Source: an uncultured Thiotrichales bacterium
Lineage (GTDB): Bacteria; Pseudomonadota; Gammaproteobacteria; UWMA-0217
Length of the DNA stretch: 64,000 nucleotides
Direction: 5' to 3'
Assembly: GCA_964430355.1 (NCBI GenBank)
Contig: CAYSFW010000047.1
Location: 5,090-69,089 of the forward strand
A program made the position numbers and the translations under genes. Positions 11,373-47,242 of the stretch are shown here, piece after piece. The notes under the pieces were generated by a model. The model saw nothing but the letters and a program-made list of their open reading frames with translations. It had not been told where the DNA came from and ran no database searches. Each line of letters begins with the position of its first letter. Positions within the stretch are counted from its first letter, which is position 1.

Positions 11373-11385
11373 GTTCGCCTGCGAC

Positions 11386-11408
11386 GCGGCCCGGCGCGTC
11401 CGGGCCGC
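11386..11408. terminator. hairpin GCGGCCCGG-cgcgt-CCGGGCCGC downstream of the RND pump
   Basis: Perfect 9-bp GC stem 14 nt after the pump stop. There is no U-tract, as is common in GC-rich genomes. Confidence 0.4.
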
Positions 11409-11491
11409 CTCTCCCACACCGAGTGTGGCAGGCGGGGTTTCGGGCTAGAATGCCCGGCCTGACTTTCTGATTGCACGAGTCCCCACGCCGT

Positions 11492-12052
11492 ATGACCGCG
11501 AATGCTGAGCACCTGGTCTGGATCGATCTGGAAATGACCGGGCTCGACCCGCAAACGGACGTGATCATCGAGATCGCGACACTGGTCACGGACAAAGAGC
11601 TCAACCCCCTCGCGGAAGGTCCGGTTCTGGCGATCCACCAGGACGAGGCCGCGCTCGCGCGCATGGATGAGTGGAACCGCAAGACGCATGGTGCATCGGG
11701 GCTGCTCGAGCGCGTGCGGGCCAGTGACGTTGGCGTTCAGGAGGCCGAGGCGCGAACACTCGAGTTCCTGCGGCAGTGGGTACCGGAGCGCGCCTCACCC
11801 ATGTGCGGCAATAGCATTTGTCAGGATCGGCGTTTCCTTGCGCGCTACATGCCGCGGCTGGAGGCCTTTTTCCACTATCGCAATCTCGACGTGAGCACGC
11901 TCAAAGAGCTCGCGCGCCGCTGGCAGCCCGAGGTCGTCAAGGCCGTCAAGAAGCAGTCCCGGCATCTTGCGCTCGACGATATTCGCGAGTCGATTGCCGA
12001 GCTACAGCATTACCGCGAAACGCTGTTCCGCACGCCGGCCTCCCGCACCTGA
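11492..12052 (+). CDS. orn: oligoribonuclease
   Basis: DEDDh exonuclease motifs ([13 protein letters not shown]...). About 186 aa from MTANAE. Confidence 0.9.
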
Positions 12053-18659: not shown

Positions 18660-18962
18660 CAGGGCGCGCTTCCGCTCGTTTCAATCGAATAGCACACTTT
18701 ATTACATCCCAGGCAAAATCTCTAACGGTTGGCATGGGCCCAACGCCGCGATGCGCGGCACGTTGCGCCTCGGCGCGCCGTGCCGGAACGAAATCACGCG
18801 GCTTTGGAACGCTGCGGCCTTTGTGGTATAAAACGCGCGCCCCGCAAACGGGGCAAATCCGCACCCGCGGCCATACGCTCCACTGGGTGCCATCCGCAGC
18901 GATGGTGGTGTGAGCGGGACGCGGGGAGGCATCAACCCAGACACATTGGAGATTCTTGATTC

Positions 18963-31967: not shown

Positions 31968-32342
31968 TTGCGCTATGTCAATGCGGTCGGGGCTGTGTTG
32001 CGGACACTATATCGCGCTCCCGTCACCCGTGTCTCATCCCTGAGCGTGCGTAGATCGAGCGGTTTTCTCCTTGCCGGCGGCGTGGCCCTGGCACTGATTG
32101 CAATGACCACCCTGGACGCGGCGCGGCAGCGGGCGGGCGCGCAGGCGCGGCTGGCCGAGGGGGCCAGGCTGGTGTCCGCGCTAGGGCTGACTGATCTCGC
32201 CCTGTTCACGGAGGCCCGCTACACGCGGCACTGGACTCAGGCGGATCTGCACAGCGCGTTTCAGGACCACCCCAGTGCACTCGAACATTTCCCGAGTGGC
32301 TCCCTGGTCGCGCCGTCGTGGGGGCGGGAGGCGGGGCTATGA
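31968..32342 (+). CDS. small membrane-anchored hypothetical protein, first gene of the NosL/ABC operon
   Basis: One TM segment (FLLAGGVALALIAMTTL). Its stop overlaps the permease start by 4 bp. Confidence 0.35.
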   Translation: MRYVNAVGAVLRTLYRAPVTRVSSLSVRRSSGFLLAGGVALALIAMTTLDAARQRAGAQARLAEGARLVSALGLTDLALFTEARYTRHWTQADLHSAFQDHPSALEHFPSGSLVAPSWGREAGL

Positions 32343-33472
32343 GCAGGGGATGGTGCCGACAGGCGTATCTCATCGATTTCACGCTCGCTTCGCTCTCGCG
32401 GCGACCCGGCAAGAACGCCGGGTTGGTCGTGGTCTACACGCTGATCGTGTTCCTGCTGGCGTCGGTGATGCTGTTTTCCCACGCGCTTCGGCGCGAGGCG
32501 GCACTGCTGCTGGCGGACTCGCCGCAGTTGATCGTGCAGCGCGTCGTGGCCGGCCGGCATGATTTCATCCCGGCGGAGTACCTGGAGCGCATCGGCGAAC
32601 TGCGCGGGGTTGCGTCGCGCCGGGGGCGACTGTGGGGCTATTTCTACGACCCGGCGGTGCGCGCCAACTACACGCTGATGGCAACCGAGGCGCACGGCCT
32701 CGTCCCGTCCGAGATCCTCATCGGCGCGACGATCGCTCGCACACGGGGGCTTGCCGCGGGGGATTTCCTCACGCTGCGCGACGCTGAGGGTCAACCCTTC
32801 GCGCTGCGCGTGCGCGGGGTGCTCGATGCGGACACTGAATTGCTCTCGGCTGATCTGGTCCTGCTCACGGAAGCGGACTGGCGGCGTTTTTTCGGCGTCG
32901 CGCAGGGTGTGTTCACGGATCTCGTGCTCGAGGTGCGCAACGCGGCGGAGGTGCGCAAGGTCGCGGAGAAAGTCACGCTGCTGCTGCCGGACACGCGGCC
33001 GATACTGCGCGAGGAGGTGCTGCGCACCTACGATGCGATCTTCGGCTGGCGGCAGGGCGTGGTGTTCGTGCTGCTGTTGGGGGCGGTGCTGGCCTTCGTG
33101 ATCTTCGCCTGGGACAAGGCCTCTGGCCTGTCCGCCGAGGAGCGGCGCGAAATCGGCATCCTCAAGGCGATCGGCTGGGAGACCTCGGACGTCATCCACA
33201 TGAAGTTCTGGGAGGGGGCGATCATCTCGCTCACGGCCTTCGCTCTCGGGTACCTCGGCGCGTACGTGCACGTGTTCTATGGTTCGGCGGCGCTGTTCGA
33301 GCCGGTACTCAAGGGTTGGGCGGTGCTCTACCCGGCGTTCCGACCGCTGCCCGAGATCGACGGCCTGCAGGTGGCAACGCTGTTCTTCTTCACTGTGTTT
33401 CCGTACACGGTGGCCACGATCGTGCCGATCTGGCAGGTGGCGGTCACCGATCCCGATGCCGTCATGCGATGA
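32339..33472 (+). CDS. ABC transporter permease, FtsX/MacB-type (4 TM with roughly 200-aa periplasmic domain)
   Basis: TM1, a long soluble domain, then three C-terminal TM helices with the FtsX signature region. It is translationally coupled to the ATPase. Confidence 0.75.
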   Translation: MSRGWCRQAYLIDFTLASLSRRPGKNAGLVVVYTLIVFLLASVMLFSHALRREAALLLADSPQLIVQRVVAGRHDFIPAEYLERIGELRGVASRRGRLWGYFYDPAVRANYTLMATEAHGLVPSEILIGATIARTRGLAAGDFLTLRDAEGQPFALRVRGVLDADTELLSADLVLLTEADWRRFFGVAQGVFTDLVLEVRNAAEVRKVAEKVTLLLPDTRPILREEVLRTYDAIFGWRQGVVFVLLLGAVLAFVIFAWDKASGLSAEERREIGILKAIGWETSDVIHMKFWEGAIISLTAFALGYLGAYVHVFYGSAALFEPVLKGWAVLYPAFRPLPEIDGLQVATLFFFTVFPYTVATIVPIWQVAVTDPDAVMR

Positions 33473-34143
33473 TCGAGCTCTCCGCCGTCAACAAGGTGTT
33501 CAACCAGGGGCGGCCCAATGAGTTTCGGGCCATCCGGGACGTGTCGCTGCGGCTCGACGGGGAGCGCGTGGTCGTGTTCAAGGGCCCGAGCGGCTCGGGC
33601 AAGACCACGCTGCTGTCGTTGATCGGCTGTCTGGCGCGACCGACTTCGGGACGCATCACGCTAGACGGCGAGCCCCTGTCCGGGCTGCCCGAGCGGTTCA
33701 TGACCGAGGTGCGCCGGCGCACCTTTGGCTTTGTGTTCCAGCAGTTCAACCTGATCCGGGGCCTGTCGGTGCTGGAGAACGTCATGCTGCCAGCCTATCC
33801 GCTGGGGCGTGATCATGGGGCGCTGAAGGCCGCGGCGCACGAGCGGCTGCGTCAGTTCGACCTCGACCACAAAGCCGCGGCGCGCGTCGAATGGCTATCC
33901 GGCGGTGAGGCGCAGCGTGTGGCGATCTGCCGCGCGCTGATCAACGAGCCGCGCATCCTGATCGCCGATGAGCCCACCGCCAACCTCGACAGCCGCTTGT
34001 CGCAGGCGTTCATGGATCACGTCGCCACGCTCGCCGCAGGCGGTGTCACCGTGCTGCTCAGCAGCCATGACCCCTTGGTGTTCGAATCCCCCGTGGTCGA
34101 GCGGGTCGTCGAGATGCGCGACGGGCAGGTGGTGTCCGCATGA
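33469..34143 (+). CDS. ABC transporter ATP-binding protein (LolD/MacB NBD-like)
   Basis: Walker A GPSGSGKTTLL, signature LSGGEAQRVAI and Walker B ILIADEPT. Confidence 0.9.
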   Translation: MIELSAVNKVFNQGRPNEFRAIRDVSLRLDGERVVVFKGPSGSGKTTLLSLIGCLARPTSGRITLDGEPLSGLPERFMTEVRRRTFGFVFQQFNLIRGLSVLENVMLPAYPLGRDHGALKAAAHERLRQFDLDHKAAARVEWLSGGEAQRVAICRALINEPRILIADEPTANLDSRLSQAFMDHVATLAAGGVTVLLSSHDPLVFESPVVERVVEMRDGQVVSA

Positions 34144-35144
34144 TCAGTCCGTCGGTGATGGCGCTGCAAGGCGCTTCGTTCACGCTGGCGGCATTGATGG
34201 TCGGCGCCGCGGCATTCGGTGTGCGCATCCTGCGGCATTGGGACATCACGAGTGGCAGCGAGCGGCAACTGCGGCTCGAACGTCAGACCTACCTGATCTC
34301 GACCGTCGTGGCCTACAGCTTCATGGCGGAGATCCTCGCGCTGCTCCTGTTCGTCTACACGGCCGAGCAGCTCTCGAGCCAGTTCGTCGGCGCGATGTGC
34401 GCCACCGGGGTCCTGAACGTCAATGGCTTCGGCTGGCCGACCTTGTGGGCAAAGATGGCCGTGGGATTCGCCGGTTTCGCGTGGCTCACCCTCGATGCGC
34501 TGGACCAGCGCGCGCCGGACTACCCACTCGTGAGGCGGAAGTACGCGCTGCTGATTGCGATCGCCCCGCTGGTCGTGCTGGAGGCCGGGTCGCAGGCAGC
34601 GTTCTTCGCCGGACTCAAGCCCGATGTCATCACCTCCTGCTGTGGCGCGTTGTTCACCCCGGAGGGACGAGGCGTGGCCGCGGAAGTCGCTGCAGTACCG
34701 CCCCGTTACGCAGCGATCCTATTCTATGCGAGCGGTGCCGCGCTCGCCGCGACGGGGGGTTACTTTCTGTGGCGGGCGAGGGGCGCGCGGCTGTTTGCGC
34801 TGGTGGGGGTGTCGACGTTCCTGATCGCGGTCGTGGCCATCGTCTCGTTCATCGCGCTGTACGTCTATGAGCACCCGCACCATCACTGCCCGTTCTGCTT
34901 GCTCAAGGCTGGCCACGGGTACGTGGGCTACGCGCTCTACCTGCCGCTGTTTACGGCCACGGCGTTTGCGCTAGGCACGGGGCTGGTCGCACCCTGGCGA
35001 CGCATCCCGACACTCGCCGAGGCGGCCCCGCGGCTGGCGCGGCACTACGCGTGGCTGGCATTAGCTGCCTTTACCGTGTTCTTCGCGGTGGCCACACTCG
35101 CCGTGCTGCGGTCGAACCTGACGATGGAGGGCGTTTGGTGGTAA
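34140..35144 (+). CDS. polytopic inner-membrane protein with conserved Cys/His motifs (AMCATG, TSCCG, HPHHHCPFCLLKAGHGY); family unknown
   Basis: About 8 predicted TM helices. Coupled by ATGA to the ATPase upstream and by TAATG to the thioredoxin gene downstream. Confidence 0.5.
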   Translation: MISPSVMALQGASFTLAALMVGAAAFGVRILRHWDITSGSERQLRLERQTYLISTVVAYSFMAEILALLLFVYTAEQLSSQFVGAMCATGVLNVNGFGWPTLWAKMAVGFAGFAWLTLDALDQRAPDYPLVRRKYALLIAIAPLVVLEAGSQAAFFAGLKPDVITSCCGALFTPEGRGVAAEVAAVPPRYAAILFYASGAALAATGGYFLWRARGARLFALVGVSTFLIAVVAIVSFIALYVYEHPHHHCPFCLLKAGHGYVGYALYLPLFTATAFALGTGLVAPWRRIPTLAEAAPRLARHYAWLALAAFTVFFAVATLAVLRSNLTMEGVWW

Positions 35145-35764
35145 TGCGGAGTCCACTGCGCGGCAAGGCGCGGGCAATGAAGGCATCACAGGGCGGTGAC
35201 TGCGCCGGTCGGTTTCGGGTGCCTGTGTTTCAAATTCTCGCGCACCAGGCGCTTGGCAGTCGATCGCCGTTGCGTGCTTGGAAGCTGACCTCAGCGCTGC
35301 TCCTCGTGGCGCTTGTCACCGCGTGCTCGGGCAAGCCCCCGGCGCTGGCCCCGGGCGAGCCGGTGCCCGGCTTCGCGTTGATGTCGCTCTCCGGCGAAAC
35401 CCTGCGTTTGCCGGAGGATGTGTCAGGCCGGGTGGTCGCCGTGCGCTTCTGGGCCGACTGGTGTCCGTTCTGCAAGTCGGAGATGCAGGCACTGGAGCCG
35501 GTTTACCAGCGCCTGAAGGAGGAGGGGCTCGTGATCCTGGCCATCAACGTCCGCCAGGACCGTGAGACCGCCGCGGCGTTCATCGCGAGGCTCGGTACGA
35601 GCTACCCGGTGTTGCTGGATACGGAGGGCGAAGTTGCGCGCCAGTATGGCGTCCTCGGCTTGCCGACGACCTTCATCGTGGACCAGCAGGGACGGCTGTC
35701 GTCGCGCATCATCGGCGAGTCCACGCCCGAGGTGTTCGAGCGCGCGGTGCGCGGGGCGCTGTGA
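35144..35764 (+). CDS. TlpA/ResA-family thiol-disulfide oxidoreductase lipoprotein (WCPFC)
   Basis: Thioredoxin fold with WADWCPFCKSEM. In frame, a TTG at 35270 would give the ideal lipoprotein signal MRAWKLTSALLLVALVTAC, so the true start may be 35270. Confidence 0.8.
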   Translation: MRSPLRGKARAMKASQGGDCAGRFRVPVFQILAHQALGSRSPLRAWKLTSALLLVALVTACSGKPPALAPGEPVPGFALMSLSGETLRLPEDVSGRVVAVRFWADWCPFCKSEMQALEPVYQRLKEEGLVILAINVRQDRETAAAFIARLGTSYPVLLDTEGEVARQYGVLGLPTTFIVDQQGRLSSRIIGESTPEVFERAVRGAL

Positions 35765-36441
35765 GCGACGAGTTCGGCTACGCGCTCGCGTTTCTCACTG
35801 GCCTGGCCGGGGCGCTGCACTGCCTGGGGATGTGCAGCGGGCTCGCGGCCGGGTTCGGCGCGCTCTGCGGTGTGCGGCCGTCCCTCGCGGTGCCGGCGCT
35901 CTATCACGCCGTGCGCCTCGGGGTCTACACGGTACTCGGCGCGGTCGGTGCGGCGCTCGGCAGCGCCCTGGTGCAGACCGGCCTGTTCGGCAAAGGGCAG
36001 GGGGTGTTGATGATCCTGGCCGGCATCGCCGTGATCTCGATTGGCGTTCATTTGGGGCTTGGGGGAGGGGCCGCGCAACCTGCCTGCAACGTGTCGGTCA
36101 AGCCCTTGCGCCGTCATGTCGGAGTTCCCCGTCACCGACTCGTCGCCTCCGCCCTCGGCGGCCTGATCAACGGCCTGGTGCCGTGCAGCCTGGTGTTTTC
36201 CGTCGCGCTCAAGGCCACGGCGACGGCAGATCCTGCGCGGGGTGCGCTGCTGATGGTGATCTTCGGGCTCGGCACGCTGCCGGCCATGTTTGCCGTCTCG
36301 GCGCTCGCCTCGCTGCTCGGCACACGGCTGCGGGGATGCTGGCCGCGCCGTCTGCTCGGGCTCACGGTCGTGATTCTCGGTGTGTGGACGCTGTACGAGG
36401 GCTGGGTGTTTTTTGACGTGATGCGCGGGCTGGCGGGCTAA
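35761..36441 (+). CDS. DsbD_2-type (CcdA-like) transmembrane thiol-disulfide transfer protein
   Basis: HCLGMC in TM1 and GLVPC in a later TM. Six TM helices. GTGA overlap with the thioredoxin stop. Confidence 0.6.
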   Translation: MSDEFGYALAFLTGLAGALHCLGMCSGLAAGFGALCGVRPSLAVPALYHAVRLGVYTVLGAVGAALGSALVQTGLFGKGQGVLMILAGIAVISIGVHLGLGGGAAQPACNVSVKPLRRHVGVPRHRLVASALGGLINGLVPCSLVFSVALKATATADPARGALLMVIFGLGTLPAMFAVSALASLLGTRLRGCWPRRLLGLTVVILGVWTLYEGWVFFDVMRGLAG

Positions 36442-36553
36442 TGGGGTGCGGCAATCTGTCGCATGTTTGTCTCGGGTCGCTGGGCGTATCCTAGTTCAAA
36501 GTCGCCTTGCGGCTTTCATAATCCAAGTTAAATCAAAGCCATGGAGACACCAC

Positions 36554-37180
36554 ATGAGCGATGTCGACACCCGCCGCCGTAAAGTCGTCAAGGTCCTCGC
36601 ATCCCTTGGCGCGGTCAGCGCAGTTGGTTTGCGGCCGGTTGCTGCCGCGCCGACAGCAGCGCGTTGCGACACCGACGGTACGCCGCTGCAGTTCGTCCCC
36701 AAGACGACTGCCGATGCCTCACCGCTCGAAAACGAGCTGCAAAAGTACCCGAAGTGCCCTTACTGCGGCATGGACCGCAAGCAGTGGAACCATAGCCGCC
36801 ACCTCGTGCAGTATGAGGACGATCTGGTCGACGGCACTTGCTCGATCCACTGTCTGGCGTTGAGCCTGGCGCTGAACATCGACCGCGGTCCGAAAGCGAT
36901 CTACGCAGCCGATTTCGGCTCGAGCGACGAGGTCAAGCCGCTGGTGCCGGTGGATGCCGCGACCTACCTGATCGGCTCGAAGCTCAAGGGTACGATGACG
37001 GCCGTGAGCAAGATGGCGTTCTCCTCTGCTGACGCAGCGAAAAAGTCGCAGGCCGAACACGGCGGTGAACTGGGCGACTTCGACAAGGCCCTGCGTGCCG
37101 CCTACACCAGCATGGCCGACGACACGTTGCGTATCCGCAAGATGCGTGCCGAGCGGCGCGCCAAAGCGATGCAGCAGTGA
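36554..37180 (+). CDS. NosL-family copper chaperone paralog with Tat-type signal
   Basis: TRRRKVVKVLASLGAVSAV twin-arginine signal. A CPYCGM metal motif, and the ATYLIGSKLKGTMTAV ... GGELGDFD segment aligns with the NosL core. GGAGA Shine-Dalgarno 6 nt upstream. Confidence 0.65.
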   Translation: MSDVDTRRRKVVKVLASLGAVSAVGLRPVAAAPTAARCDTDGTPLQFVPKTTADASPLENELQKYPKCPYCGMDRKQWNHSRHLVQYEDDLVDGTCSIHCLALSLALNIDRGPKAIYAADFGSSDEVKPLVPVDAATYLIGSKLKGTMTAVSKMAFSSADAAKKSQAEHGGELGDFDKALRAAYTSMADDTLRIRKMRAERRAKAMQQ

Positions 37181-37698
37181 TCGGCGCGGGTGTCTGGACG
37201 CGACGCCTGGGGCTTGCAGCGGTGTGGCTCTGTCTGGTTGCCGCGCCGTTGCGCTCTCACGCTGAGTCGCTGCAACTGCCCGCACCGGGGCCAAAGGACA
37301 CCTGCCCGGTGTGCGGCATGTTCGTATCCAAGTACCCGCAGTGGATCGCGACCGTGCTGTATCGAGACGGGCATGCGCACCACTTCGACGGGGCCAAGGA
37401 CCTGTTCAAGTATCTGCAGGACCTCGCAAAATGGGCCCCGGGCCGCCGCCGTGAGGACATTCAGGCGATCGGGGTCACCGAGTACTACGGCTTGAGTCGC
37501 ATCCGCGCCCAAGACGCCTGGTTTGTCATCGGTTCCGACGTGCTGGGGCCGATGGGGCACGAACTCGTGCCGCTCGCGTCCCAGGCCGAGGCCGAGGAGT
37601 TCGTGCGCGACCATCAAGGCAAGCGCATCCTGCGCTTCGACGCCGTGACCCCCGAACTCATCAAGCGTCTGGACGAAGGACGTTTCGACGGCATCTAG
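37177..37698 (+). CDS. nosL: NosL-family copper chaperone (Sec signal)
   Basis: CPVCGM motif, with AWFVIGSDVLGPMGHELV and RILRFDAV matching NosL. GTG start overlapping the upstream stop. Confidence 0.7.
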   Translation: MIGAGVWTRRLGLAAVWLCLVAAPLRSHAESLQLPAPGPKDTCPVCGMFVSKYPQWIATVLYRDGHAHHFDGAKDLFKYLQDLAKWAPGRRREDIQAIGVTEYYGLSRIRAQDAWFVIGSDVLGPMGHELVPLASQAEAEEFVRDHQGKRILRFDAVTPELIKRLDEGRFDGI

Positions 37699-37949
37699 CC
37701 GCGCCTGGCGCATCGCTCGGCGCCGGGTTTGCCCATGGGTTGAGCATCATCGTTGCCGGTCGGCTGGAGCTGCCCTACCATTCTGGGCCGCGCAGAGGTC
37801 GCAGCGCGGGTATCGCTGCGGTCTGCGGTTTCTCCAAGTAGGACCACTGCCGTGGTAGGTACACTATTCCAATACCGTTCGATCCTCGACCACGGGCGTC
37901 GCCGTGACGATGCCGGTCGTTGATTCAACCCATAGCCCAGGAGCCCTCG

Positions 37950-38336
37950 ATGTATACATTCGAAGTCACGCTCAGCATGCCGTTTGACGACGCCGTCGCC
38001 CGCGTCACGGCGGCACTCATGGAACACAAGATGGGTGTTGTGAGCGACATACCGGTGTCGGACATCGTGAAGAACAAACTCGGTACCGCGATCCGCCCCT
38101 ACCGCATCCTCGGCGCCTGTCAGCCTGCGCTCGCCCTGAGGGTGATCGAATCGGACCCCAACGGCGGCACGCTCCTGCCTTGTAACGTCGCGCTGCAGGA
38201 GGTGGCCGATGATCAGGTCGTCGTGCGTTTCATGGACCCCATCTCCGTGCTGCGTCTCTCCGACGCCGCAGAGGTCGCCGACGTCGGCCGTGAGGCCGCT
38301 GCCCTGTTGCGGCGGGTTGCCGACAGCCTCGCCTGA
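37950..38336 (+). CDS. DUF302 domain protein
   Basis: The YRILGACQP motif and a length of about 128 aa are typical of DUF302. Confidence 0.75.
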   Translation: MYTFEVTLSMPFDDAVARVTAALMEHKMGVVSDIPVSDIVKNKLGTAIRPYRILGACQPALALRVIESDPNGGTLLPCNVALQEVADDQVVVRFMDPISVLRLSDAAEVADVGREAAALLRRVADSLA

Positions 38337-38627: not shown

Positions 38628-39116
38628 TCAGGCCGACTGGGATGCCTCGCTGGCGATCGCGCCGTGCAGCCGGCGCTCTAGCTCACCGTGGTCCAGGATG
38701 AAGCATTTGACGCCCGCCGCGAGCACGTACTGGGCGATCAGGTCGCAAGACTTATACGGCGCCTGAGGTCGGATGTCTGACTCACCTAGGCGCACGGGGT
38801 GCGGTATGCCCTGAATCTCTATCGCGAAGCTGTCCAGGCCGCGCAGGTTGAGCAGGCCGTTGAGCACGGCAACGCGCCGGGTGCGTACCTGGGTCTGCTC
38901 TGGCAGCAGATCACAGAAACGCTCCAGTGACACCAGTGGTACCTCGCGATCGCGCCACACCAGCAGCCCCCGAATCCAGTCCGGTACGCTTTGCAGGGGG
39001 CGCACTTCCGGCATCGACACGACCTCGACCAAAGCGCTCTGCGGCACCAGTAGATTTTGCAGCCGCATCGGAACGATCAGCGATTGAATCTTTACTTTAG
39101 CGTGCTGCGTTTCCAT
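38628..39116 (-). CDS. chpC: CheW-like coupling protein (ChpC-like)
   Basis: Single CheW domain. Its start overlaps the chpA stop by 20 bp. Confidence 0.8.
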   Translation of the reverse strand: METQHAKVKIQSLIVPMRLQNLLVPQSALVEVVSMPEVRPLQSVPDWIRGLLVWRDREVPLVSLERFCDLLPEQTQVRTRRVAVLNGLLNLRGLDSFAIEIQGIPHPVRLGESDIRPQAPYKSCDLIAQYVLAAGVKCFILDHGELERRLHGAIASEASQSA

Positions 39117-42100
39117 GTGCCTGCTGTCCGACTTCCTTGAAAACGGCCTGGATGTTTTCGATCAACACCTGATCCTGGTACGGCTTGCCGAGGAACCGAT
39201 TCACACCGAGCTCGAGCGCCCGATCACGGTGCTTTTTGCCCGTGCGCGAGGTAATCATGATGATCGGCAACTCACGGTTGGTGTCCATGCTGCGAATGTG
39301 CGCAGCAAGCTCGTAGCCGTCCATGCGCGGCATCTCGATATCGAGCAGCATCATATCGGGCCGCACTTCCTGCAACTGCGCGATGGCGTCCATGCCGTCC
39401 TTTGCGGTGATCACGTTGAAATTGTGCCGCTCGAGCATGCGTGCCGTGACCTTGCGGATGGTGATCGAGTCGTCGACCACCATGATCGTTGGGCGTTCTG
39501 TCCCAACCGAGGATTCCTTGCGCACCGGTGCCGGCGCCCAGGACGCCTCGCCAGCGACTGAACGCAGCAGGCCCAGCATGTCGAGGATGAGCACAACGCG
39601 CCCATCGCCGAGGATGGTCGCGCCGGAGATCCCCTTGACCGACTGGAACAGGGCGCCGATTGACTTCACGACAATCTCGCGGTTGCCGATCAATTGATCG
39701 ACGACGAATCCCACCGCCCTGTCGTGAGTGCGTGCGAGCAGCACGGGCATGGTGCGTTCGAAGTGAGGCACCGGGTGATGCGCGTCGCGCTCCAGCACCG
39801 CTGAAAGCAGCTTGAGCTGGTAGCTGGCGCCTGCATACTCGATGCCGGGATCGCGGTGCGCGAATTTGTCATTCAGGACCTTGGCCGGGATCTGCACCAC
39901 GCTGTCGATGGCGGTCAGGGGTACCGCGAAGAGCTCGGTGCCGACTGTGATCAGCAGGGCCTGGTTGATCGCGAGCGTGAACGGCAAGTGGATCCGGAAG
40001 CGGGTGCCCTGACCGGGTGTCGACTGGATATCGAGCACACCGTTAAGGCGCCGCACCTGCTCCTGAACCACGTCCATACCGACGCCGCGACCCGAGAGCT
40101 GGCTCACGCGTTCCGCTGTGCTAAAGCCAGGTTGGAGGATCAGTTCCATGACCTCGGCGTCGGTCAACTCACGCGAACCGTCGATCAGGCAGACCGCCAT
40201 CGCCTTGCGCCGGACGGCATCGAGGTTGATTCCAGCACCGTCATCCGAGACCGCGATGACGACCTCCGGGCCTTCGCGCGCAATCCTCACCTGGATGCGG
40301 CCGATGCGTGGCTTGCCCGCCTGCGTCCGGTGTTCCGGCAGCTCGATGCCGTGCGCGACCGCATTGCGCAGCATGTGCTCGAGCGGCACCATGATGCCCT
40401 CCAGCATCTTGCGGTCGAGCGGCTGCTGTTCGCCGCTGACGTGGAGCTCCACCTCCTTGCCCAGCTCCAAGGCAGCGCGTCGGACCACCCGCCGCAGCCG
40501 CGGGACCATGACCCTGAACTCCGACATGCGGGTCTGCAGGAGGCTCTCCTGAAGATCTCCGCTGACGCGGCTCTGCTGGCGAAGCAGGGATTCGAGCGCG
40601 CGAATCTGTTCCGAGAGGATCTGGTGGAGATTGACCAGGTCGTTGGAACTCTCCGCCAGACCGCGGGCGAGCTGTTGCATGGTCGAATAGCGGTCCAGCT
40701 CCAGCGGATCGAACTTGTCGTAGACCGAGCTTTCGTCCGGGTCGATCTTTGCATCGTAGCGATGCACGATCTGTGCTTCGGTCTCCACCTCGAGACGGCG
40801 CAACTGGGCCCCAAGCCGCTTGATGGTCTGGTCGAGTTCCTGCAGGTTGAACGCGAAACCGCCGACCTGCTGCTCCAGCCGCGACTGAAATACGTTCACT
40901 TCGCCGACGTTGTCGACCATCTTGTCGAGCAAGTCGGCGCGAATCTTGACGACATCCCGGGCCGCTGCGACCTCCGCAGCGACCGCTTCGCCCGGCGCGG
41001 TATCCGCTTCGTGCTCGGTTTCGGGGGATGGGGTTGTGGCCGGTTCGGTCGGTGCAGCAACCGTCATCGTCCTTACCGGATCGGCTGCTGCCACAGGGCT
41101 TTCCACCTGCGCCATGATGCCGGCGAGCGTCTTTGCGGAGATATTTTCGCCCCGTCGCACGCGGGCCAACTGTTCCATGAGCGGCTGGTTGTTGGCCACG
41201 GGCTTGTGGGCCTGGATGAGCGCGGCCATCTGGTTGATCTGGTCGAGACCGGTGTGGATCAGGTCGAACAGCTCGCGGTCAGGATTGAGTTGGCCCTCCA
41301 CGACGTCGAGGAGGACATTCTCCAGTGCGTGGCTGAGGTCCCCAAGCACCTGAATCCCCGCCATCCGGGCGCCGCCTTTGAGGGTGTGCAACTCACGGCG
41401 CAGTTCGGCCAGCGGCCCAGCATCACTCGGGTTCGACTGCCAGCGCGCCATGATGTTGTCGCAGCTGTCGAGGATCTCACGGCATTCCTCGAGGAACACC
41501 TCGACAAGCTCGGCCGATTGCTCACCCGCGCCGTCCTCCTGCCAGGTCTTGGCGGGCTCGCTCGACCCGCCTCGCGGCGTGAGCCCGGAGGACATAGCTT
41601 CGTCCGCGGCGGGTGACGCCTGCGGTGCATCGTTTGACCCAGGGGCGTCGATGGTGGCCGCCAGCGCGTCGTTTGCGACCTCGGGTGATTGAGCTGAGTC
41701 CTGTGCCTCCAGTTCGACCGCCGCCACGGGCACGTCCAGGCTGGGGCTCTGTGCGAGAGCCTCGGCGGCTTCGTGGGCACGCCACTGCAAGGTGGGGTCC
41801 TGGGGAACCGGTGTTGACGCCTGAAGCGCGGCGATCACGTGCTCCACGTAACCCGCAAAGTCCAGCAGCAACGTCACCTCGTCTGCGTCCAGCACCAGCG
41901 CGTGCCGGTATTTCAGCGTCAACAGGCGCTCGAGATCCTTCGCGGTCTCGTAGATCTCCGGCAACGCGGCGGTTCGGGCCGCGCCGTTGAGCGTGTGCGC
42001 AGCACGCAGCAGCGGTTCATCGACGAGCGCTGGCCCCATCTCGCAGCGGGCACACGCCTTGCGGATTTGCGAGATGTGCTCGAGCGCCTCAGCGGCAAAG

Positions 42101-45090
42101 ATATCCAGCAAAGCCGTATCATGCGGCTTCGCGGTCTCCTCGATCACGCCCGCCACATCTTGGGCGGAGGCGAGGATGACCGCCTCATCGCCTGCGAGCA
42201 CGGCCTCGGACTCGGTCGATTCGGGTGCCACGACACTGTCGCTCGGCTGATCCACCGTAGTTGCCGACGCCTGGACGGCATGCGCATCGGGCTCGTCCGC
42301 CGGCTTGGTAGGTTCGCTGCGGGCGGCCTCCTCGCTGGGGACAGCGGTCTCGCCGGACAGCGGACTCGGGACGATGGCGGGTAGCACCGTAGCAGATCCA
42401 GCGAGCTCCTCGTCGCGCGCGCGTTCCAAAGTCTCGGAGACGGCGGCGTCGGCCGGTTCGGTCAACGTCTCCGGAGGCTCCGCAGGATGGTCGAGCGTGC
42501 CGGCCGATTCGGCGTTCGGATTTTCGACCGTGTCGATGCGCGCCAGGTGTGAAATGACGGCGGCGTTCGGGCGCTCGCGGGCGAGCAACTGGTCACGCAG
42601 CACGGGGAGCAGGGCAATACCCGACTGCACGTACGCGATCAGGGCTGGAGTGACGGGGATCGAGCCGTCCATCGCCCCGTTCAACAGGTGCTCGTGATTC
42701 CAGGCGAACTCCCCGATGACCTGGGCGCCGATCAGGCGCGAGCTTCCCTTGATCGTGTGGAATGCGCGGCGGATCTGGGTCAGTGCCTCACGTTCGGCTG
42801 GGTTGTCCGCCCACGTGCCGATGGCCGCGTTCAACCGCTGGATTTCCTCGCCCAGTTCCTCGGCAAAAATGTCCAGGAACTCGGGGTCGGCATCGCTGGT
42901 CAGCACCTCCAGTCCCGCGAAGGGATCGGTTTGCGCCGGGAGGTCTGCTGGCTGCGCTTCGCCGCCCCCCCTCATTGACAGTGCCGGGCTGCCCGCTGGA
43001 ACCCCCTCAGGGGCCATCTGCGGTTCGGGAACGACGGCTGCCTCCGCGTCGACCGTCGGCTTTGCGTTCGTCTCGTCGAATGCGAGCGCGCGCATCAGGG
43101 AGGTATCCCACAGATCGCCCTCGAACTGGTCGTCAGCCGCAATCTGCTCATGGTCGAGGCCGCTGGCGCTGGCATCCAGCCCGATCAGGGTCGCGTTGAT
43201 ACCGAGATCGGTCAGCGGTTCGTCGAACTCCTCGGTCAGGTCAATGATCTCCGTGCCCGACAGGAGGTCCTCGTCTGCCCGCAGTGCGTCGTCGAGCGCA
43301 GGCTCGAGCAGCATCGCCTCTTCAATCGCCGCCGCGTCCTCCGCAACGGACGTCTGCTCGACGAGCTCGTCGAGCTGCCGCTCAAGGGCGTGCAGGGCAA
43401 GTCGTCCTGAATCAAGATAAGGCGGATGCGGTTCGCCACTGACCTCGATCGATTCGAGGTACAGCTCGATGCTCGCCACCACGTCGGCCATGCGTTCCAC
43501 GGCAGAGGTGGCTGGCAAACGTTCGTGGGTTGCGATGCGCTGCATGGCGGGGGCAAAGTCGCGCACCAGTGAGGCACACTGGTCGAGTTCGAGTACCTGC
43601 AACGCGCCCTGCATGCGCTGGAGCGACCCTTCGATGGGTGCGAGCGCGAGCCGGTCGCTCGCCTCAGACTTGACGTAGGTGGCGATCGCAGTCTTGCACT
43701 GCTCGAGTTCGGTGAGCGTCTCGCGAATGGCGACGGCGCGTGTCTTGGCGTATTCGATGTCGCGGAGCTTGTCCTGACCGGCGGCATCGCTGTCACTATC
43801 CTCGAGCGTGACCAGCATGTCGCGCGCGCCCACGCCGTAAGAGGCCATGCTGGCCTCGACTTCGAGCAGCGTCTTGGCGAGGGCTTCGGACTGCGCTTCG
43901 TCGGGAATTTGCCGATCGTCCAGCGTGCGCTCCAGCTCTTCGAAGCGCGCGTGCACCGCCTCGCGCAGCTCAGACAGGCCCAACATGCCAAGCGTCTCGG
44001 CCAGTCGGCGCAGCGACGGTAAGACCGGGATGAGCAGGTCGATGGTCTTACGCTCGGCCAGCCCGAAGATTTCGAGCTGGTCCTTGAGGTCCTGGACGTC
44101 CTCGCAAACCGCCTTGGCCACGGAGCGGAACAGGGCGTTGTTTTGTCCGCTCACGCTGATGCGAGCGGCAGAGAGCGCTTCGGGACTTGGCAGGTCGCCA
44201 TCCAGAAAATAGGCCTCGCGCACGGCATCGACGACCGGATTGCCAGGTTCGGCAATGGCCACGTAGTACAGAAGGCTTCGCACCAGCTCGATGGGAATCA
44301 GCGGCGCGAAGCGCTGTTCGCCCATCTCGAACAAGAGCTTGATTTGACGGTCGATCTTGCCGAGCACGAGCTTGATGGCCGCGGAAGGCGCGAGCACCCT
44401 CGAGTGCAGCGCCTCGAGTATCGCCTCGGATACCCACCACAGGCGCTTGCTTGCGCGGAAGTGCGAGGCGTGCCGCAGGCGCTGACACACCAAGGCCATC
44501 TTTTTGAGGTTCGACTGGACGTTCTTGTTGCGGTACCAGCCGAGCAGGCCGAGCTGGAATACATGCCGCGTGAGGTGTGCGAGGCCCTGCAGGTCCTCGT
44601 GAGTCAGTGGACGGGTTTCCGCTACGTCCGATCCCTGGTCCAGATTCGAGATTTTCACGATGTTGTCGGAGATCAGCTCCTCGTCGCGTGCTGCGCGTAG
44701 GTCATTGAGGATGGACACGAGCACAAGCGGGATGTCCTCACGTCCGGACTGAATGTATTCGAGGTAATCCGGCAACTGGATGAGCGCACGCACCACGAGC
44801 TTGCAGGCTTCGACAGGCCGCCGCACGCGATTGTCGGCGACTTGCCGGATCAGGGCGAGGCACTCCTGAGCGAGCATGGCCGCGCCGCTGAGCTCGGCAA
44901 CTTCCAACGTGCCGAGCACGTCCTTGATTTGCGGCAGTGCACGGTGGAGGTGCTGTACCTGCGCAGTGTCGTCGAGGTAATTCAACACGGCCGCGCGCGC
45001 TGCCTCGAGGGAGCGGTCGATCTCCCGCTTGACCCACGTGAGCGAATTGAAGCGATGCCTGATTTGCGAGTCCATGGATTCCTCTAACAC
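39097..45090 (-). CDS. chpA: hybrid chemosensory histidine kinase ChpA/PilL (multiple Hpt domains, CheA kinase core, CheW domain, C-terminal receiver)
   Basis: 1997 aa. It has at least three Hpt motifs (HTIKGSSRLIGA, HTLNGAARTAAL, HTLKGGARMAGI), the HATPase G-boxes, a CheW domain, and a REC domain MVVDDS...LLDIEMPRMDG at the C-terminus. Long acidic Ala/Pro/Glu linkers are present. Confidence 0.9.
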   Translation of the reverse strand: MLEESMDSQIRHRFNSLTWVKREIDRSLEAARAAVLNYLDDTAQVQHLHRALPQIKDVLGTLEVAELSGAAMLAQECLALIRQVADNRVRRPVEACKLVVRALIQLPDYLEYIQSGREDIPLVLVSILNDLRAARDEELISDNIVKISNLDQGSDVAETRPLTHEDLQGLAHLTRHVFQLGLLGWYRNKNVQSNLKKMALVCQRLRHASHFRASKRLWWVSEAILEALHSRVLAPSAAIKLVLGKIDRQIKLLFEMGEQRFAPLIPIELVRSLLYYVAIAEPGNPVVDAVREAYFLDGDLPSPEALSAARISVSGQNNALFRSVAKAVCEDVQDLKDQLEIFGLAERKTIDLLIPVLPSLRRLAETLGMLGLSELREAVHARFEELERTLDDRQIPDEAQSEALAKTLLEVEASMASYGVGARDMLVTLEDSDSDAAGQDKLRDIEYAKTRAVAIRETLTELEQCKTAIATYVKSEASDRLALAPIEGSLQRMQGALQVLELDQCASLVRDFAPAMQRIATHERLPATSAVERMADVVASIELYLESIEVSGEPHPPYLDSGRLALHALERQLDELVEQTSVAEDAAAIEEAMLLEPALDDALRADEDLLSGTEIIDLTEEFDEPLTDLGINATLIGLDASASGLDHEQIAADDQFEGDLWDTSLMRALAFDETNAKPTVDAEAAVVPEPQMAPEGVPAGSPALSMRGGGEAQPADLPAQTDPFAGLEVLTSDADPEFLDIFAEELGEEIQRLNAAIGTWADNPAEREALTQIRRAFHTIKGSSRLIGAQVIGEFAWNHEHLLNGAMDGSIPVTPALIAYVQSGIALLPVLRDQLLARERPNAAVISHLARIDTVENPNAESAGTLDHPAEPPETLTEPADAAVSETLERARDEELAGSATVLPAIVPSPLSGETAVPSEEAARSEPTKPADEPDAHAVQASATTVDQPSDSVVAPESTESEAVLAGDEAVILASAQDVAGVIEETAKPHDTALLDIFAAEALEHISQIRKACARCEMGPALVDEPLLRAAHTLNGAARTAALPEIYETAKDLERLLTLKYRHALVLDADEVTLLLDFAGYVEHVIAALQASTPVPQDPTLQWRAHEAAEALAQSPSLDVPVAAVELEAQDSAQSPEVANDALAATIDAPGSNDAPQASPAADEAMSSGLTPRGGSSEPAKTWQEDGAGEQSAELVEVFLEECREILDSCDNIMARWQSNPSDAGPLAELRRELHTLKGGARMAGIQVLGDLSHALENVLLDVVEGQLNPDRELFDLIHTGLDQINQMAALIQAHKPVANNQPLMEQLARVRRGENISAKTLAGIMAQVESPVAAADPVRTMTVAAPTEPATTPSPETEHEADTAPGEAVAAEVAAARDVVKIRADLLDKMVDNVGEVNVFQSRLEQQVGGFAFNLQELDQTIKRLGAQLRRLEVETEAQIVHRYDAKIDPDESSVYDKFDPLELDRYSTMQQLARGLAESSNDLVNLHQILSEQIRALESLLRQQSRVSGDLQESLLQTRMSEFRVMVPRLRRVVRRAALELGKEVELHVSGEQQPLDRKMLEGIMVPLEHMLRNAVAHGIELPEHRTQAGKPRIGRIQVRIAREGPEVVIAVSDDGAGINLDAVRRKAMAVCLIDGSRELTDAEVMELILQPGFSTAERVSQLSGRGVGMDVVQEQVRRLNGVLDIQSTPGQGTRFRIHLPFTLAINQALLITVGTELFAVPLTAIDSVVQIPAKVLNDKFAHRDPGIEYAGASYQLKLLSAVLERDAHHPVPHFERTMPVLLARTHDRAVGFVVDQLIGNREIVVKSIGALFQSVKGISGATILGDGRVVLILDMLGLLRSVAGEASWAPAPVRKESSVGTERPTIMVVDDSITIRKVTARMLERHNFNVITAKDGMDAIAQLQEVRPDMMLLDIEMPRMDGYELAAHIRSMDTNRELPIIMITSRTGKKHRDRALELGVNRFLGKPYQDQVLIENIQAVFKEVGQQAHGNAAR

Positions 45091-45124
45091 TAAGCCTGCC
45101 TGACATCCCTGTCCGGACCGCCGG

Positions 45125-47242
45125 TCACACTCCGACCGCTACGCCACCGGCCTGGTTCGCGACAGATTCGCGCGCTGCGTTCATGTCGTCGGCGAGCGCA
45201 GGGGTGTCGGGCAGCTTGAAGCCCTCCACCGACTTTCTGAGATCGGACGCCTGATTGACGAGCTCCGCCAGGGCGACTGCGGTCTCGTTGGTCGCGTTCA
45301 CGGTCTGCTTCGTGATTTCCTGGATCGAACCCATCGCCTCGGCGACAACACCGGAGACGATCGCCTGCTCGCGCGCCTCCTCGGAGATGTTGCGGATCAG
45401 ATCGGCCAGTTTGTGCGATACCTTTTCGATTTCGCTGAGCGCCTTGCCGGCGTCTTCGGCCTGATGGGCGCCGGTGACGACGTTGGCCGTACTCTTTTCC
45501 ATGGAACTGATGGCCTCATGCGTATCCGCCTGAATAGTCTTGACCAGCACCTCGATTTGCTTACTCGAGTTGGCGGCCCGCTCCGCCAGTCGTTGCACCT
45601 CGTCGGCGACGACAGCGAATCCCCGTCCGCCTTCACCGGCGGAGGAGGCCTGGATGGCGGCGTTGAGTGCGAGGATGTTCGTCTGGTCAGCGATGTCGGT
45701 GATCATGCCGACGATCTCGCCAATCTGCTGCGAGCTCTCACCCAGGCGCTTGATGCGCTTGGAAGTGTCCTGAATGTGCTCACGGATCTTGTCCATGCCC
45801 TCGATGGTGCGGTGCACGGTGTCCACGCCGCGTTGCGAGATGACCAGCGACTGCTCGGCAACCTTCGCTGAGAGTTCGGCGCTATTGGAAACCCGCTCGA
45901 TCGAGTGCGTGAGGTCATTGATCGAGTCGGTGGCTGAGGCGATCTTGCGCGCCTGTTTCTTACTCGCCTCAGCGAGCTGGATGGAGGTTCGCCGCGTGCG
46001 CTCGGCGCGCTCGGAGACCCGGTTGGCTGATTCGTTGATGGTCGTGACCAGCGTGCGCAGCGCGTCCACGGCGTAGTTCACGGAGTCGGCAATCGCGCCC
46101 GTGATGTCCTCGGTCACCGTCGCGTTCACGGTCAGGTCGCCATCAGCGAGTGTGGCCATTTCATCGAGCAACTTGAGGATGGCTGCCTGGTTGCGGTCGT
46201 TGGACGCCTTGGACTGCTGCAGCTGCGTGCGTGTGGCGCGCAGCACCCCATGTGCCATGGCCAGGAAGCTCAACAGGGCGAGCAGCGCAAGGATGAGGCC
46301 GGCGTTCGACCAGAGCGCCGCGCTGCGGTTGTGTTCCTGGATGGCGGCTTCAAGCCGGGTGGTACCGTCGAACAGCGCGCGCCCCTCGCCTTCGACCGAC
46401 ACGGCAGCCTGACGGACGCTGTAGAGCTGCGGGGCGATCTCCACCAAATTGCTGGCCCGGTCGGCGACGTCCCCGAAATCGGACACGATCGCGGCGAGGG
46501 CACCCTGCGCGGCGGGCGTTGCGACCCGGTCCACGCCGAGCGCGGGATTGCCGCTGCGCATGGCGTCCACGACCTGGCTGAAGACGGAGACGTCCTTGTT
46601 GAGCTGGTCGGCCGCGTTGATCGCGGAGGCGTCCCCCACCAGGAGGCTGGTCAGGTTGTTCTCGATACGCTGCGCGAGCATGAGCTGGCGCGTGGCCATG
46701 TAGATCTGGTTGGTGCCAGCGCGGGCATCGCGCAGGATCTCGACGATTCTTGCGGAGGCATCCAGCAACGCGGGGAGTTTGGACTTGACGACGTCCACCG
46801 CCTGCTTGGTGCGAGTGATGACGCCGCGGCTGGCGAGGATGGCGTTGAGCTGCCGGTCTAAGCGCTCCCACTGGCCTACGATCTGGTCGAGTTCGGGTTT
46901 GAGCTCGGGGGACAGGGCAGGTACGCCCGCCTCGGCATCGCCGATGCACAGGCGGTTGAGGTTTTGCTGAAACTCCTCACGCAGCTGCTTTAGCAGCAGG
47001 AAGGCGGTGTCGCCGCCCTGCGAGGCAGCCAGTGATTGCGTGGTCAAGCGTTGCGAGAGCAGGCGCAGGGCGGCGGCAGCCTCACCGTGGCTGCGGCCCG
47101 TGTTACCCAGTTTTGCCGCCTGATAGAAGGACACGCCCATCAGCACGATGAACAGGAGGACCAGGCTTCCCCACAGGCCAACCGGCCGGCTGATGCTGGC
47201 TGCCTGCCGGGATTTGGAGGGTTTCAAACCGAGCGCTTTCAT
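45125..47242 (-). CDS. pilJ: methyl-accepting chemotaxis protein PilJ
   Basis: N-terminal TM helix, periplasmic domain, second TM helix, HAMP, and the highly conserved MCP signalling domain. Confidence 0.9.

Follow-up and report, generated by a model that had tools for sequence, protein, structure and literature searches.

The DNA considered here, a stretch of 64,000 nucleotides from an uncultured Thiotrichales bacterium (contig CAYSFW010000047.1; the whole stretch is called the window, and positions are counted from its first letter), carries two tandem genes for proteins of the NosL family, with which an operon of eight genes ends; most of its junctions are stop/start overlaps. An earlier note, made from the sequence alone, had drawn attention to this pair, and both genes are indeed found where it placed them. 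The first, NosL_T (36554..37180, plus strand), starts with ATG and encodes 208 amino acids (aa) with a NosL fold and a predicted signal of the twin-arginine translocation (Tat) type; the second, NosL_S (37177..37698, plus strand), starts with GTG and encodes a NosL protein of 173 aa, nearer than NosL_T to canonical NosL, with a predicted signal for the general secretory (Sec) route. The GTG overlaps the stop codon of NosL_T as GTGA, just as the earlier note had read it. The public gene call for NosL_S (37318-37698, 126 aa) starts instead at the Met of CPVCGM and thereby loses the signal peptide and both cysteine ligands, whereas the start at GTG 37177 makes the protein collinear with all 76 orthologs.

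The two NosL proteins and their signals

Both proteins score above the gathering score of the Pfam NosL family (PF05573, 24 bits), NosL_T with 49.4 bits (E 7e-13) and NosL_S with 105.7 bits (E 3e-30). The fold of NosL_S was assigned by sequence alone, through its matches in the PDB to 7og7 (E 1.2e-8) and to 7osf, which is NosL within the NosDFYL complex of Pseudomonas stutzeri (E 4.5e-6). The sequence of NosL_T matched NosL structures only marginally (E 0.05), and for this protein an AlphaFold2 model was used (predicted local distance difference test, pLDDT, 88.9), for which the only significant Foldseek matches were the NosL structures 7osg_H and 7og7 (probability 1.0, target TM 0.64-0.65, where TM is the template-modelling score).

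In 7og7, the crystallised NosL of Shewanella denitrificans, the cargo Cu(I) is held by Cys62, Met64, and Met145, and a structural Zn(II) by Cys59, Cys62, Cys88, and Asp92, the latter site being one that varies among NosL proteins (PMC8457098). Mapped through HMMER alignments to NosL and through family alignments, the Cu(I) site corresponds to C71, M73, and M148 of NosL_T and to C46, M48, and M126 of NosL_S, and the Zn(II) site to C68, C71, C96, and C100 and to C43, C46, D71, and D75, respectively; the residues at all of these positions are at least 95% conserved in 142 relatives of NosL_T and 131 relatives of NosL_S. The CP(Y/V)CGM ligand motif to which the earlier note had pointed is therefore common to both (C68-P-Y-C71-G-M73 and C43-P-V-C46-G-M48), with the second methionine lying in a G-x-M loop (M148 in NosL_T; G-P-M126-G in NosL_S), and its Cu(I) ligands are conserved on alignment to the characterised protein. 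Judged by these alignments, both proteins keep what a Cu(I)-carrying NosL needs.

It is at the presumed structural site that the two part company. NosL_T has a Cys4 arrangement, C-x2-C-x24-C-x3-C, including C96-S-x-H99-C100, which is retained by nearly all full-length relatives among 150 cluster representatives, whereas NosL_S has F70-D71-G-x-K-D75 as its second half-site and thus presents Cys2Asp2 at the same positions. NosL_T further carries a conserved N-terminal extension before the fold (DGTPLQFxPK) and, at the C-terminus, a long helix of basic character (residues 176-207). Compared with each other by BLASTP, the two proteins align over the motif only (E 0.036), which rules out a recent tandem duplication; the word paralogs, as the earlier note used it, is right at the level of the family and wrong for a duplicated pair. 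Because the likeness is confined to the shared motifs, NosL_T and NosL_S are, on sequence grounds, two old subtypes of one family that differ in their presumed structural site.

The assignment of the two export routes, also proposed in the earlier note, gained support from the orthologs. The N-terminus of NosL_T reads MSDVDTRRRKVVKVLASLGAVSAV, with a signal of about residues 1-37 that contains the twin-arginine motif T-R-R-R-K-V-V-K (family consensus RRxVLK) and in which R27 precedes the A-x-A region. Twin arginines followed by hydrophobic residues are present in 82 of 82 NosL_T orthologs, and the arginine pair is likewise invariant in 14 of 14 alignment sequences, whereas the NosL_S orthologs have ordinary Sec signals with n-, h-, and c-regions, an arginine pair being found in 20 of 76 and one with a hydrophobic follow-up in 9 of 76. 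The arginine pair within W-T-R-R-L-G-L of the NosL_S signal in the window is not conserved and probably incidental. A lower hydrophobicity of the h-region is a known difference of Tat from Sec signals, and the best 12-mer h-region hydropathy (Kyte-Doolittle, median) is 1.81 for the NosL_T type and 2.43 for the NosL_S type (p = 4e-23). The NCBIfam Tat-signal model matched the signal peptide of neither protein (for NosL_T, a 46-aa peptide). Taken together, motif, hydropathy, and conservation argue for a Tat signal on NosL_T and a Sec signal on NosL_S. By inspection of the sequences the lipobox that marks the canonical NosL of nos clusters is absent from both proteins; the NosL_S signal ends ...RSHA/ES, and its C19 stands outside a lipobox context.

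The operon and its conserved core

Six genes precede the pair on the plus strand. The operon opens with a small single-pass membrane protein (maximal open reading frame 31968..32342, 124 aa; likely start GTG 32046, giving 98 aa), which has no Pfam match. Its motif, L-T-D-L-x-L-F-T-E-A-x-Y-T-R-H...A-D-L-H, is well kept, 19 residues being at least 95% conserved in 74 sequences, and its orthologs of 70-116 aa stand directly before the FtsX gene in genomic and metagenome loci alike. That next gene (32318..33472, plus strand) encodes an ATP-binding cassette (ABC) permease of the FtsX type (MacB/LolC-like, type VII; PF02687 28.3 bits, cutoff 25.5) with weak similarity to LolCE and a marginal sequence match in the PDB (YtrF, E 0.14); it likely starts at ATG 32339, behind GGGAGG and with an ATGA overlap with the stop of the small gene, and it is conserved beside the NosL pair in related loci. 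It adjoins the gene of an ABC ATPase of the FtsE/LolD/MacB type (33466..34143, plus strand; PF00005 108 bits), whose best NCBIfam similarities, FtsE, LolD, and DevA, all fall under their cutoffs. An FtsX-type permease gene with an adjoining ATPase gene is what marks a type VII ABC transporter, and the two genes are predicted to encode one. Mem334 follows (34140..35144, plus strand), a polytopic membrane protein of 334 aa with eight predicted transmembrane helices and no Pfam or NCBIfam match; its invariant M86-C87, C167-C168, and E244-x-P-x-H248-H249-C250-P-F-C253 all lie on predicted periplasmic loops. The ABC transporter and Mem334 are conserved core partners of the NosL pair that the earlier note had overlooked.

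The last two genes before the pair are those that it had named. One encodes a TlpA/ResA/CcmG-like periplasmic thioredoxin (35144..35764, plus strand, with the start of the public gene call) with the active-site motif W-C-P-F-C, of which W94, C95, and C98 are at least 95% conserved (AhpC-TSA 94 bits, Redoxin 85 bits; ResA in the PDB at E 5e-23). It resembles ResA, DsbE, and TlpA and stays under the cutoff of all equivalog models, so that it is a family member and no named ortholog; a V-T-A-C lipobox suggests that it is probably a lipoprotein. The other is a membrane protein of the DsbD_2 family (35761..36441, plus strand; PF13386 119.8 bits), for which no PDB relative was found. The names of its relatives are ambiguous ("sulfite exporter TauE/SafE family", and a UniRef name beginning "Urease accessory pro..."), and Pfam groups the family with the electron conduits of cytochrome c biogenesis; C21, C25, and C142 are conserved within H20-C21-x2-M24-C25 and P141-C142. 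The protein may accordingly be read either as a CcdA-like electron conduit for TlpA or as a UreH-like metal permease. Only between it and NosL_T does the operon have a real intergenic gap (36442..36553, 112 nt, plus strand), with a hairpin and T-run at 36446-36464 and a sigma-70-like site at 36495-36522, both of which are consensus matches only; the gap may, as a weak suggestion, hold an internal promoter from which the NosL pair would be transcribed apart from the six upstream genes. Neither nosZ, nosD, nosR, nor any other nos structural gene was recognisable among the large open reading frames of the 64 kb window, in agreement with the earlier note.

The remainder of the window is of a different nature. 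Upstream lie the housekeeping genes rpsB-tsf-pyrH, uppS, dxr, bamA, and lpxD-fabZ-lpxA, with a t44 RNA (Rfam RF00127, 47.7 bits) at 18842-18936 in its usual place upstream of rpsB, and downstream, on the minus strand at 38628-47242, a Pil-Chp chemosensory cluster with a ChpA-like hybrid kinase of 1997 aa and a PilJ-like receptor. A DUF302 gene (37920-38336, minus strand) was considered as a part of the module and dropped, as it occurs only in the lineage of the window.

Homologs of NosL_T number more than 2300 in the protein collection, typically 60-77% identical and bearing the source name NosL, with hosts among Thiotrichales, Sedimenticola, Sulfurivermis, Endothiovibrio, and Ca. Thiodiazotropha, and a pattern scan with one genome per species found a relative in at least 464 species. 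In the best 80 loci the NosL_T and NosL_S types are adjacent in about 75, and most of the loci keep the order small protein, FtsX permease, ATPase, Mem334, TlpA, (DsbD_2), NosL_T, NosL_S, roughly every second Tat-type locus having the DsbD_2 gene. Departures from this order are a Sedimenticola metagenome-assembled genome in which the NosL pair precedes the other module genes and three Desulfobulbales-like loci with NosL_T alone. In Sulfurivermis fontis (AP018724.1; locus L002, 6034-8787), 2.7 kb without a called gene separate Mem334 from TlpA, a stretch that may have been inserted or may contain a gene that was not called.

Beyond these close relatives, 210 clusters of a library clustered at 50% identity match NosL_T at E <= 1e-10, and many of them have a Sec signal in place of the Tat signal while retaining the Cys4 motif. 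In three of them (P0159, P0220, and P0233) an N-terminal NosL_T-type domain is fused to a C-terminal domain 39-51% identical to NosL_S, both behind one signal peptide, and such fusions are followed by the small protein, the FtsX permease, the ATPase, and a homolog of Mem334 (32% identical) in which the cysteine motifs are retained. In one distant fused-NosL locus (L090, 12132-12641), a membrane-anchored 169-aa protein with D-C-G-M follows the Mem334 homolog and may be a third, degenerate NosL-like protein in the place of TlpA. In other proteins (P0190; L112, 6486-7931; P0194) a NosL_T-type domain shares its chain with a Cytochrome D1/YNCE-like beta-propeller or with a domain of a c-type cytochrome, which hints at further partners of this subtype. 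No plasmid-borne copy of NosL_T or Mem334 was found among those with curated annotation.

A scan of metagenomes with the Sec-type relatives (about 40% identical) as queries gave 80 loci, and on sufficiently long contigs these typically show the order NosL_T, NosL_S, small protein, FtsX permease, ATPase, Mem334, with TlpA in 4 of the 80 and DsbD_2 in 1. TlpA accompanies NosL_T of the Tat type in 65 of 81 loci and of the Sec type in 1 of 36 (Fisher p = 3e-16, a figure that overstates independence, the comparison being essentially one of two clades). As judged by gene order, the core of six genes, NosL_T, NosL_S, the small protein, the FtsX permease, the ATPase, and Mem334, is ancient, its range extending from sulfur oxidisers of the Gammaproteobacteria to metagenome lineages of anaerobes, and the Tat signal, TlpA, and DsbD_2 appear as clade-specific additions. 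From long-range synteny and gene fusion together it follows that NosL_T and NosL_S very probably work together, and in so far as the earlier note had the two proteins cooperate, the three fusions speak for it, as does adjacency in about 75 of 80 genomic loci and in most metagenome loci of sufficient length.

The metal and the competing explanations

The commonest neighbour outside the core is a heavy-metal pump of the resistance-nodulation-division (RND) type, of the CusA/CzcA family. Among the 80 metagenome loci, 25 have its gene adjoining the module (among the 33 of at least 6 kb, 15), and so do two Chromatiaceae loci, a third having the CusB-like adaptor only; in L154, L164, L166, and L167 the pump gene immediately precedes the module in the same orientation, with a CusB-like adaptor before it. 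The pump scores 1065 bits with TIGR00914 (cutoff 701); among solved structures it is closest to CusA of E. coli, with 991 bits against 484 for the zinc pump ZneA, and it keeps the methionine triad of CusA (M573/M623/M672) together with the CusA-type motif in transmembrane helix 4. Another distant NosL pair adjoins a CusB-like adaptor with a YHS domain. Because the Cys-Met-Met triad is conserved and CusA-type genes are neighbours in other lineages, the cargo of the module is most likely Cu(I), or else Ag(I). Neighbours of other kinds offered less. Methyltransferase genes, met in three contexts, were dropped when they proved not recurrent by tblastn, and neighbouring two-component systems were rejected as copper sensors, the best being CpxA/CpxR and generic OmpR/PhoB matches, below cutoffs and in some lineages only. 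Two lineages have CpxA/CpxR-like two-component genes and a CpxP-like gene shortly after the operon (L002, 12797-15465; L013, 11867-13171), all of them scoring below the equivalog cutoffs.

We favour, with moderate confidence, the explanation that the NosL pair are heterotypic chaperones of a conserved extracytoplasmic module that handles a soft metal, most probably Cu(I). NosL_T and NosL_S would act as one complex in which Cu(I) is bound by the Cys-Met-Met triad and a structural metal such as Zn by the N-terminal sites (Cys4 in NosL_T, Cys2Asp2 in NosL_S), and Cu(I) would be exchanged between the NosL proteins and the periplasm-facing thiol/histidine site of Mem334. MacB, LolCDE, and FtsEX transmit ATP-driven movement to the periplasmic side without translocating a substrate across the bilayer, and the FtsX-type ABC transporter of the module might power the hand-off in like manner, ATP driving a conformational change on the periplasmic side, a scheme akin to that of NosDFY-NosL in its logic though not in descent. 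The direction could be either removal towards Cus-type efflux or the supply of cuproenzymes. In reducing, sulfidic habitats copper occurs as Cu(I) and cannot be detoxified by routes that need oxygen; such habitats and the Cus neighbours are the reasons for which we lean to buffering and removal of Cu(I). In the clade to which the window belongs, the four-cysteine site of NosL_T would, thanks to Tat export, fold and take up its structural metal while still in the cytoplasm, and TlpA, fed by DsbD_2 or by a housekeeping DsbD, would keep the cysteines of NosL_S and Mem334 reduced; all three features, the Tat signal, TlpA, and DsbD_2, have the appearance of adaptations to a periplasm that is oxidising.

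Going further, and with due hesitation, we entertain the thought that this is an unrecognised class of ATP-driven periplasmic metal-trafficking machine, one that moves Cu(I) between carriers and the membrane independently of nitrous oxide (N2O) reductase (N2OR). Such a machine would consist, again tentatively, of a heterodimeric NosL, a type VII ABC mechanotransmitter with its small partner, and a new Cys/His membrane family. It may even be, though we would not insist on it, a counterpart in function to NosDFYL that is made of other components and widespread among anaerobic and sulfur-cycling bacteria, and NosL may possibly have had its origin in this setting.

Several observations weigh against copper handling of this kind. 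No copper gene lies near the module in the window itself; the operon is without a membrane-fusion protein, and FtsX-type ABC systems normally use partners that are unseen here; the periplasmic domain of the FtsX permease has no conserved Cys, Met, or His; and the tie between Tat signal and TlpA is, as said above, largely a comparison of two clades. Other observations could point to cobalt. Cobalamin genes (a precorrin methylase of the cobM type, CbiJ, CbiD, and CobB) follow directly downstream of the NosL pair in 16 Competibacteraceae-type loci (L011, L014, L018, L024, L028, L032-L035, L038, L042, L044, L050, L052, L059, and L078), in L018 with a stop/start overlap (e.g., 11115-11879); cobO stands divergently upstream in Sedimenticola and cobU beside the lone NosL_T of Desulfurivibrio dismutans; and the DsbD_2 family includes UreH-like metal permeases.

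These last observations are the substance of a different proposal, in which the NosL pair would capture cobalt or nickel for cobalamin under sulfidic conditions and a UreH-like DsbD_2, for which the urease accessory name among its relatives speaks, or Mem334 would import it. We regard it as improbable. The linkage to cob genes is limited to three lineages and absent from about 58 of the 80 genomic loci and from the metagenome loci, DsbD_2 is missing from the very Competibacteraceae loci that bear the cob genes, and no cobalamin or other riboswitch was found at Rfam gathering thresholds in the window or in seven loci; moreover, a ligand set of Cys, Met, and Met is typical of Cu(I) and not of Co(II), and the commonest neighbour overall is a CusA-type pump. 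The same ligand set, together with the lack of recurrent mer, ars, or czc-type genes beside the module, bears on whether the system is a thiol-based one for a different soft metal or a metalloid (Ag, Hg, Cd, Zn), or a thiol-redox system without metal traffic. The NosL fold, a double beta-beta-alpha-beta, resembles MerB in Foldseek, CusA pumps also export Ag(I), and the vicinal cysteine pair and CxxC of Mem334 recall thiol relays of the MerT/MerC type; yet the exact Cu(I) triad of NosL is retained, which argues for Cu(I)/Ag(I), and we hold this proposal, too, to be improbable.

A place in the maturation of a remote N2OR, the pair being extra or alternative copies that serve a NosZ encoded elsewhere, would suit several hosts that are denitrifiers by name (Thioalbus denitrificans, Competibacter denitrificans, and Sedimenticola). 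It meets with the absence of nos genes from the window and from the recurrent neighbours of about 160 related loci, with conserved partners that are an FtsX-type ABC transporter and Mem334 instead of NosDFY, and with two NosL proteins neither of which is predicted to be a lipoprotein; in addition, the module is common in metagenome lineages of anaerobes and in purple sulfur bacteria (Lamprocystis, Thiocapsa), where N2OR is not expected. This role therefore seems to us unlikely, even if Cu delivery to N2OR is the only characterised function of the NosL family (PMC8457098).

The relay that the earlier note had suggested, with NosL_T loaded with metal in the cytoplasm, exported folded, and handing its metal to NosL_S in the periplasm, did not fare better, and we give it little credence. 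It accounts for a Tat/Sec split that is conserved throughout the clade and for the functional link of the two proteins. However, distant NosL_T-type proteins carry plain Sec signals, and the fused forms share one signal, so that homologous modules exist with both domains exported by Sec or behind a single signal peptide; on account of these the split route is not intrinsic to the working of the pair but an adaptation of an accessory kind. One-shot, stoichiometric export of metal on a protein would also be very costly. The use of Tat tracks the thiol-reductase genes, which speaks for a folding and redox reason, and since the split route co-varies with TlpA (65/81 vs 1/36), Tat export is more readily understood as a means of folding the Cys4 site beforehand, in the cytoplasm of organisms whose periplasm is oxidising, than as a way of delivering cargo.

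Comparison with known systems and implications

The closest parallel to the copper-handling module that we favour is the NosDFY-NosL system (7og7; P. stutzeri 7osf-7osj, 7znq), in which the NosL protein is of the same family and fold, has the same Cu(I) triad, and is likewise encoded with an ABC transporter that lacks an obvious transmembrane path for a substrate. As both systems join a NosL to a pathless ABC transporter, an ATP-driven periplasmic hand-off suggests itself as the natural analogy. The differences are nevertheless considerable. In place of the NosL of the nos system, the module has two heterotypic NosL proteins, neither of them predicted to be a lipoprotein and one of them a putative Tat substrate with Cys4 and a basic C-terminal helix; its ABC proteins match FtsX (type VII) and not the ABC-2 type of NosFY, and there is no NosD-like gene. 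It adds the Cys/His protein Mem334, the small membrane protein, TlpA, and DsbD_2, and neither nosZ nor nosR is nearby.

Other known systems illuminate single features. TlpA-ScoI/CoxB and CcdA-ResA/CcmG are reductive pathways of Bradyrhizobium and Bacillus, and there, too, an anchored WCxxC thioredoxin and a protein of the DsbD/CcdA superfamily go together with cysteine-based copper chaperones that have to stay reduced; the presumed clients in the module are, however, NosL-type proteins and Mem334 and not Sco, CoxB, or apocytochromes, and its DsbD_2, which has an HCxxMC motif, may not be an electron conduit. In comparison with CusCFBA of E. coli, many related loci have CusB/CusA-type genes beside the module and co-oriented with it, and the role of CusF would match, in which a Met/Cys chaperone of the periplasm supplies an efflux pump, but there is no relation to CusF in sequence or fold, the module has an ABC ATPase of its own, and neither the window nor most gammaproteobacterial loci have adjacent Cus genes. 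In MncA and CucA of Synechocystis the folding compartment, Tat against Sec, sets metal occupancy. As there, one fold would be shared by two proteins, one folded before Tat export and one exported unfolded by Sec, their metal sites being filled in different compartments; NosL_T and NosL_S, by contrast, are partners in one operon, and their Tat/Sec split is clade-specific. Finally, the TRASH/YHS metal-binding modules have the spacing C-x2-C-x19-22-C-x3-C, close to the C-x2-C-x24-C-x3-C of NosL_T, which is at least 95% conserved, and a related domain gave a weak YHS match; the spacing of NosL_T is slightly longer, however, and its motif is embedded in a full NosL fold.

That some NosL homologs lie outside nos clusters has been noted before (PMC8457098), and a "NosL family protein" otherwise appears in proteomics papers without context. 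In the literature found there was no description of a heterotypic NosL pair, a Tat-type NosL, a linkage to an FtsX-type ABC transporter, the Mem334 family, or the operon. The architecture of the system is thus undescribed, whereas its kind of function, a metallochaperone with an ABC machine, is known, and so is the family to which the NosL proteins belong. Read from gene content and conservation, the eight-gene operon, conserved in hundreds of sulfur-cycling bacteria, most likely handles Cu(I) outside the cytoplasm and independently of N2OR.

NosL has so far been understood only as the copper chaperone of N2OR, and the present findings indicate for the family a second and much broader context, on the scale of at least 464 species representatives and thousands of metagenome proteins, in which two NosL subtypes are firmly tied to a transporter of the FtsX type and to an unannotated family of membrane proteins. 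Bacteria of anoxic sediments and of the boundary between sulfide and oxygen live where copper is in short supply and at the same time particularly toxic. Should the module indeed handle copper, it would show how these bacteria deal with periplasmic Cu(I), and to the copper machines Cus, Cop, Sco/PCuAC, and NosDFYL a new one would be added. The clade-specific combination of a Tat signal with TlpA and DsbD_2, for its part, offers a natural test case of how an export route and a dedicated reductant may together protect cysteine-rich metal sites in an oxidising periplasm.

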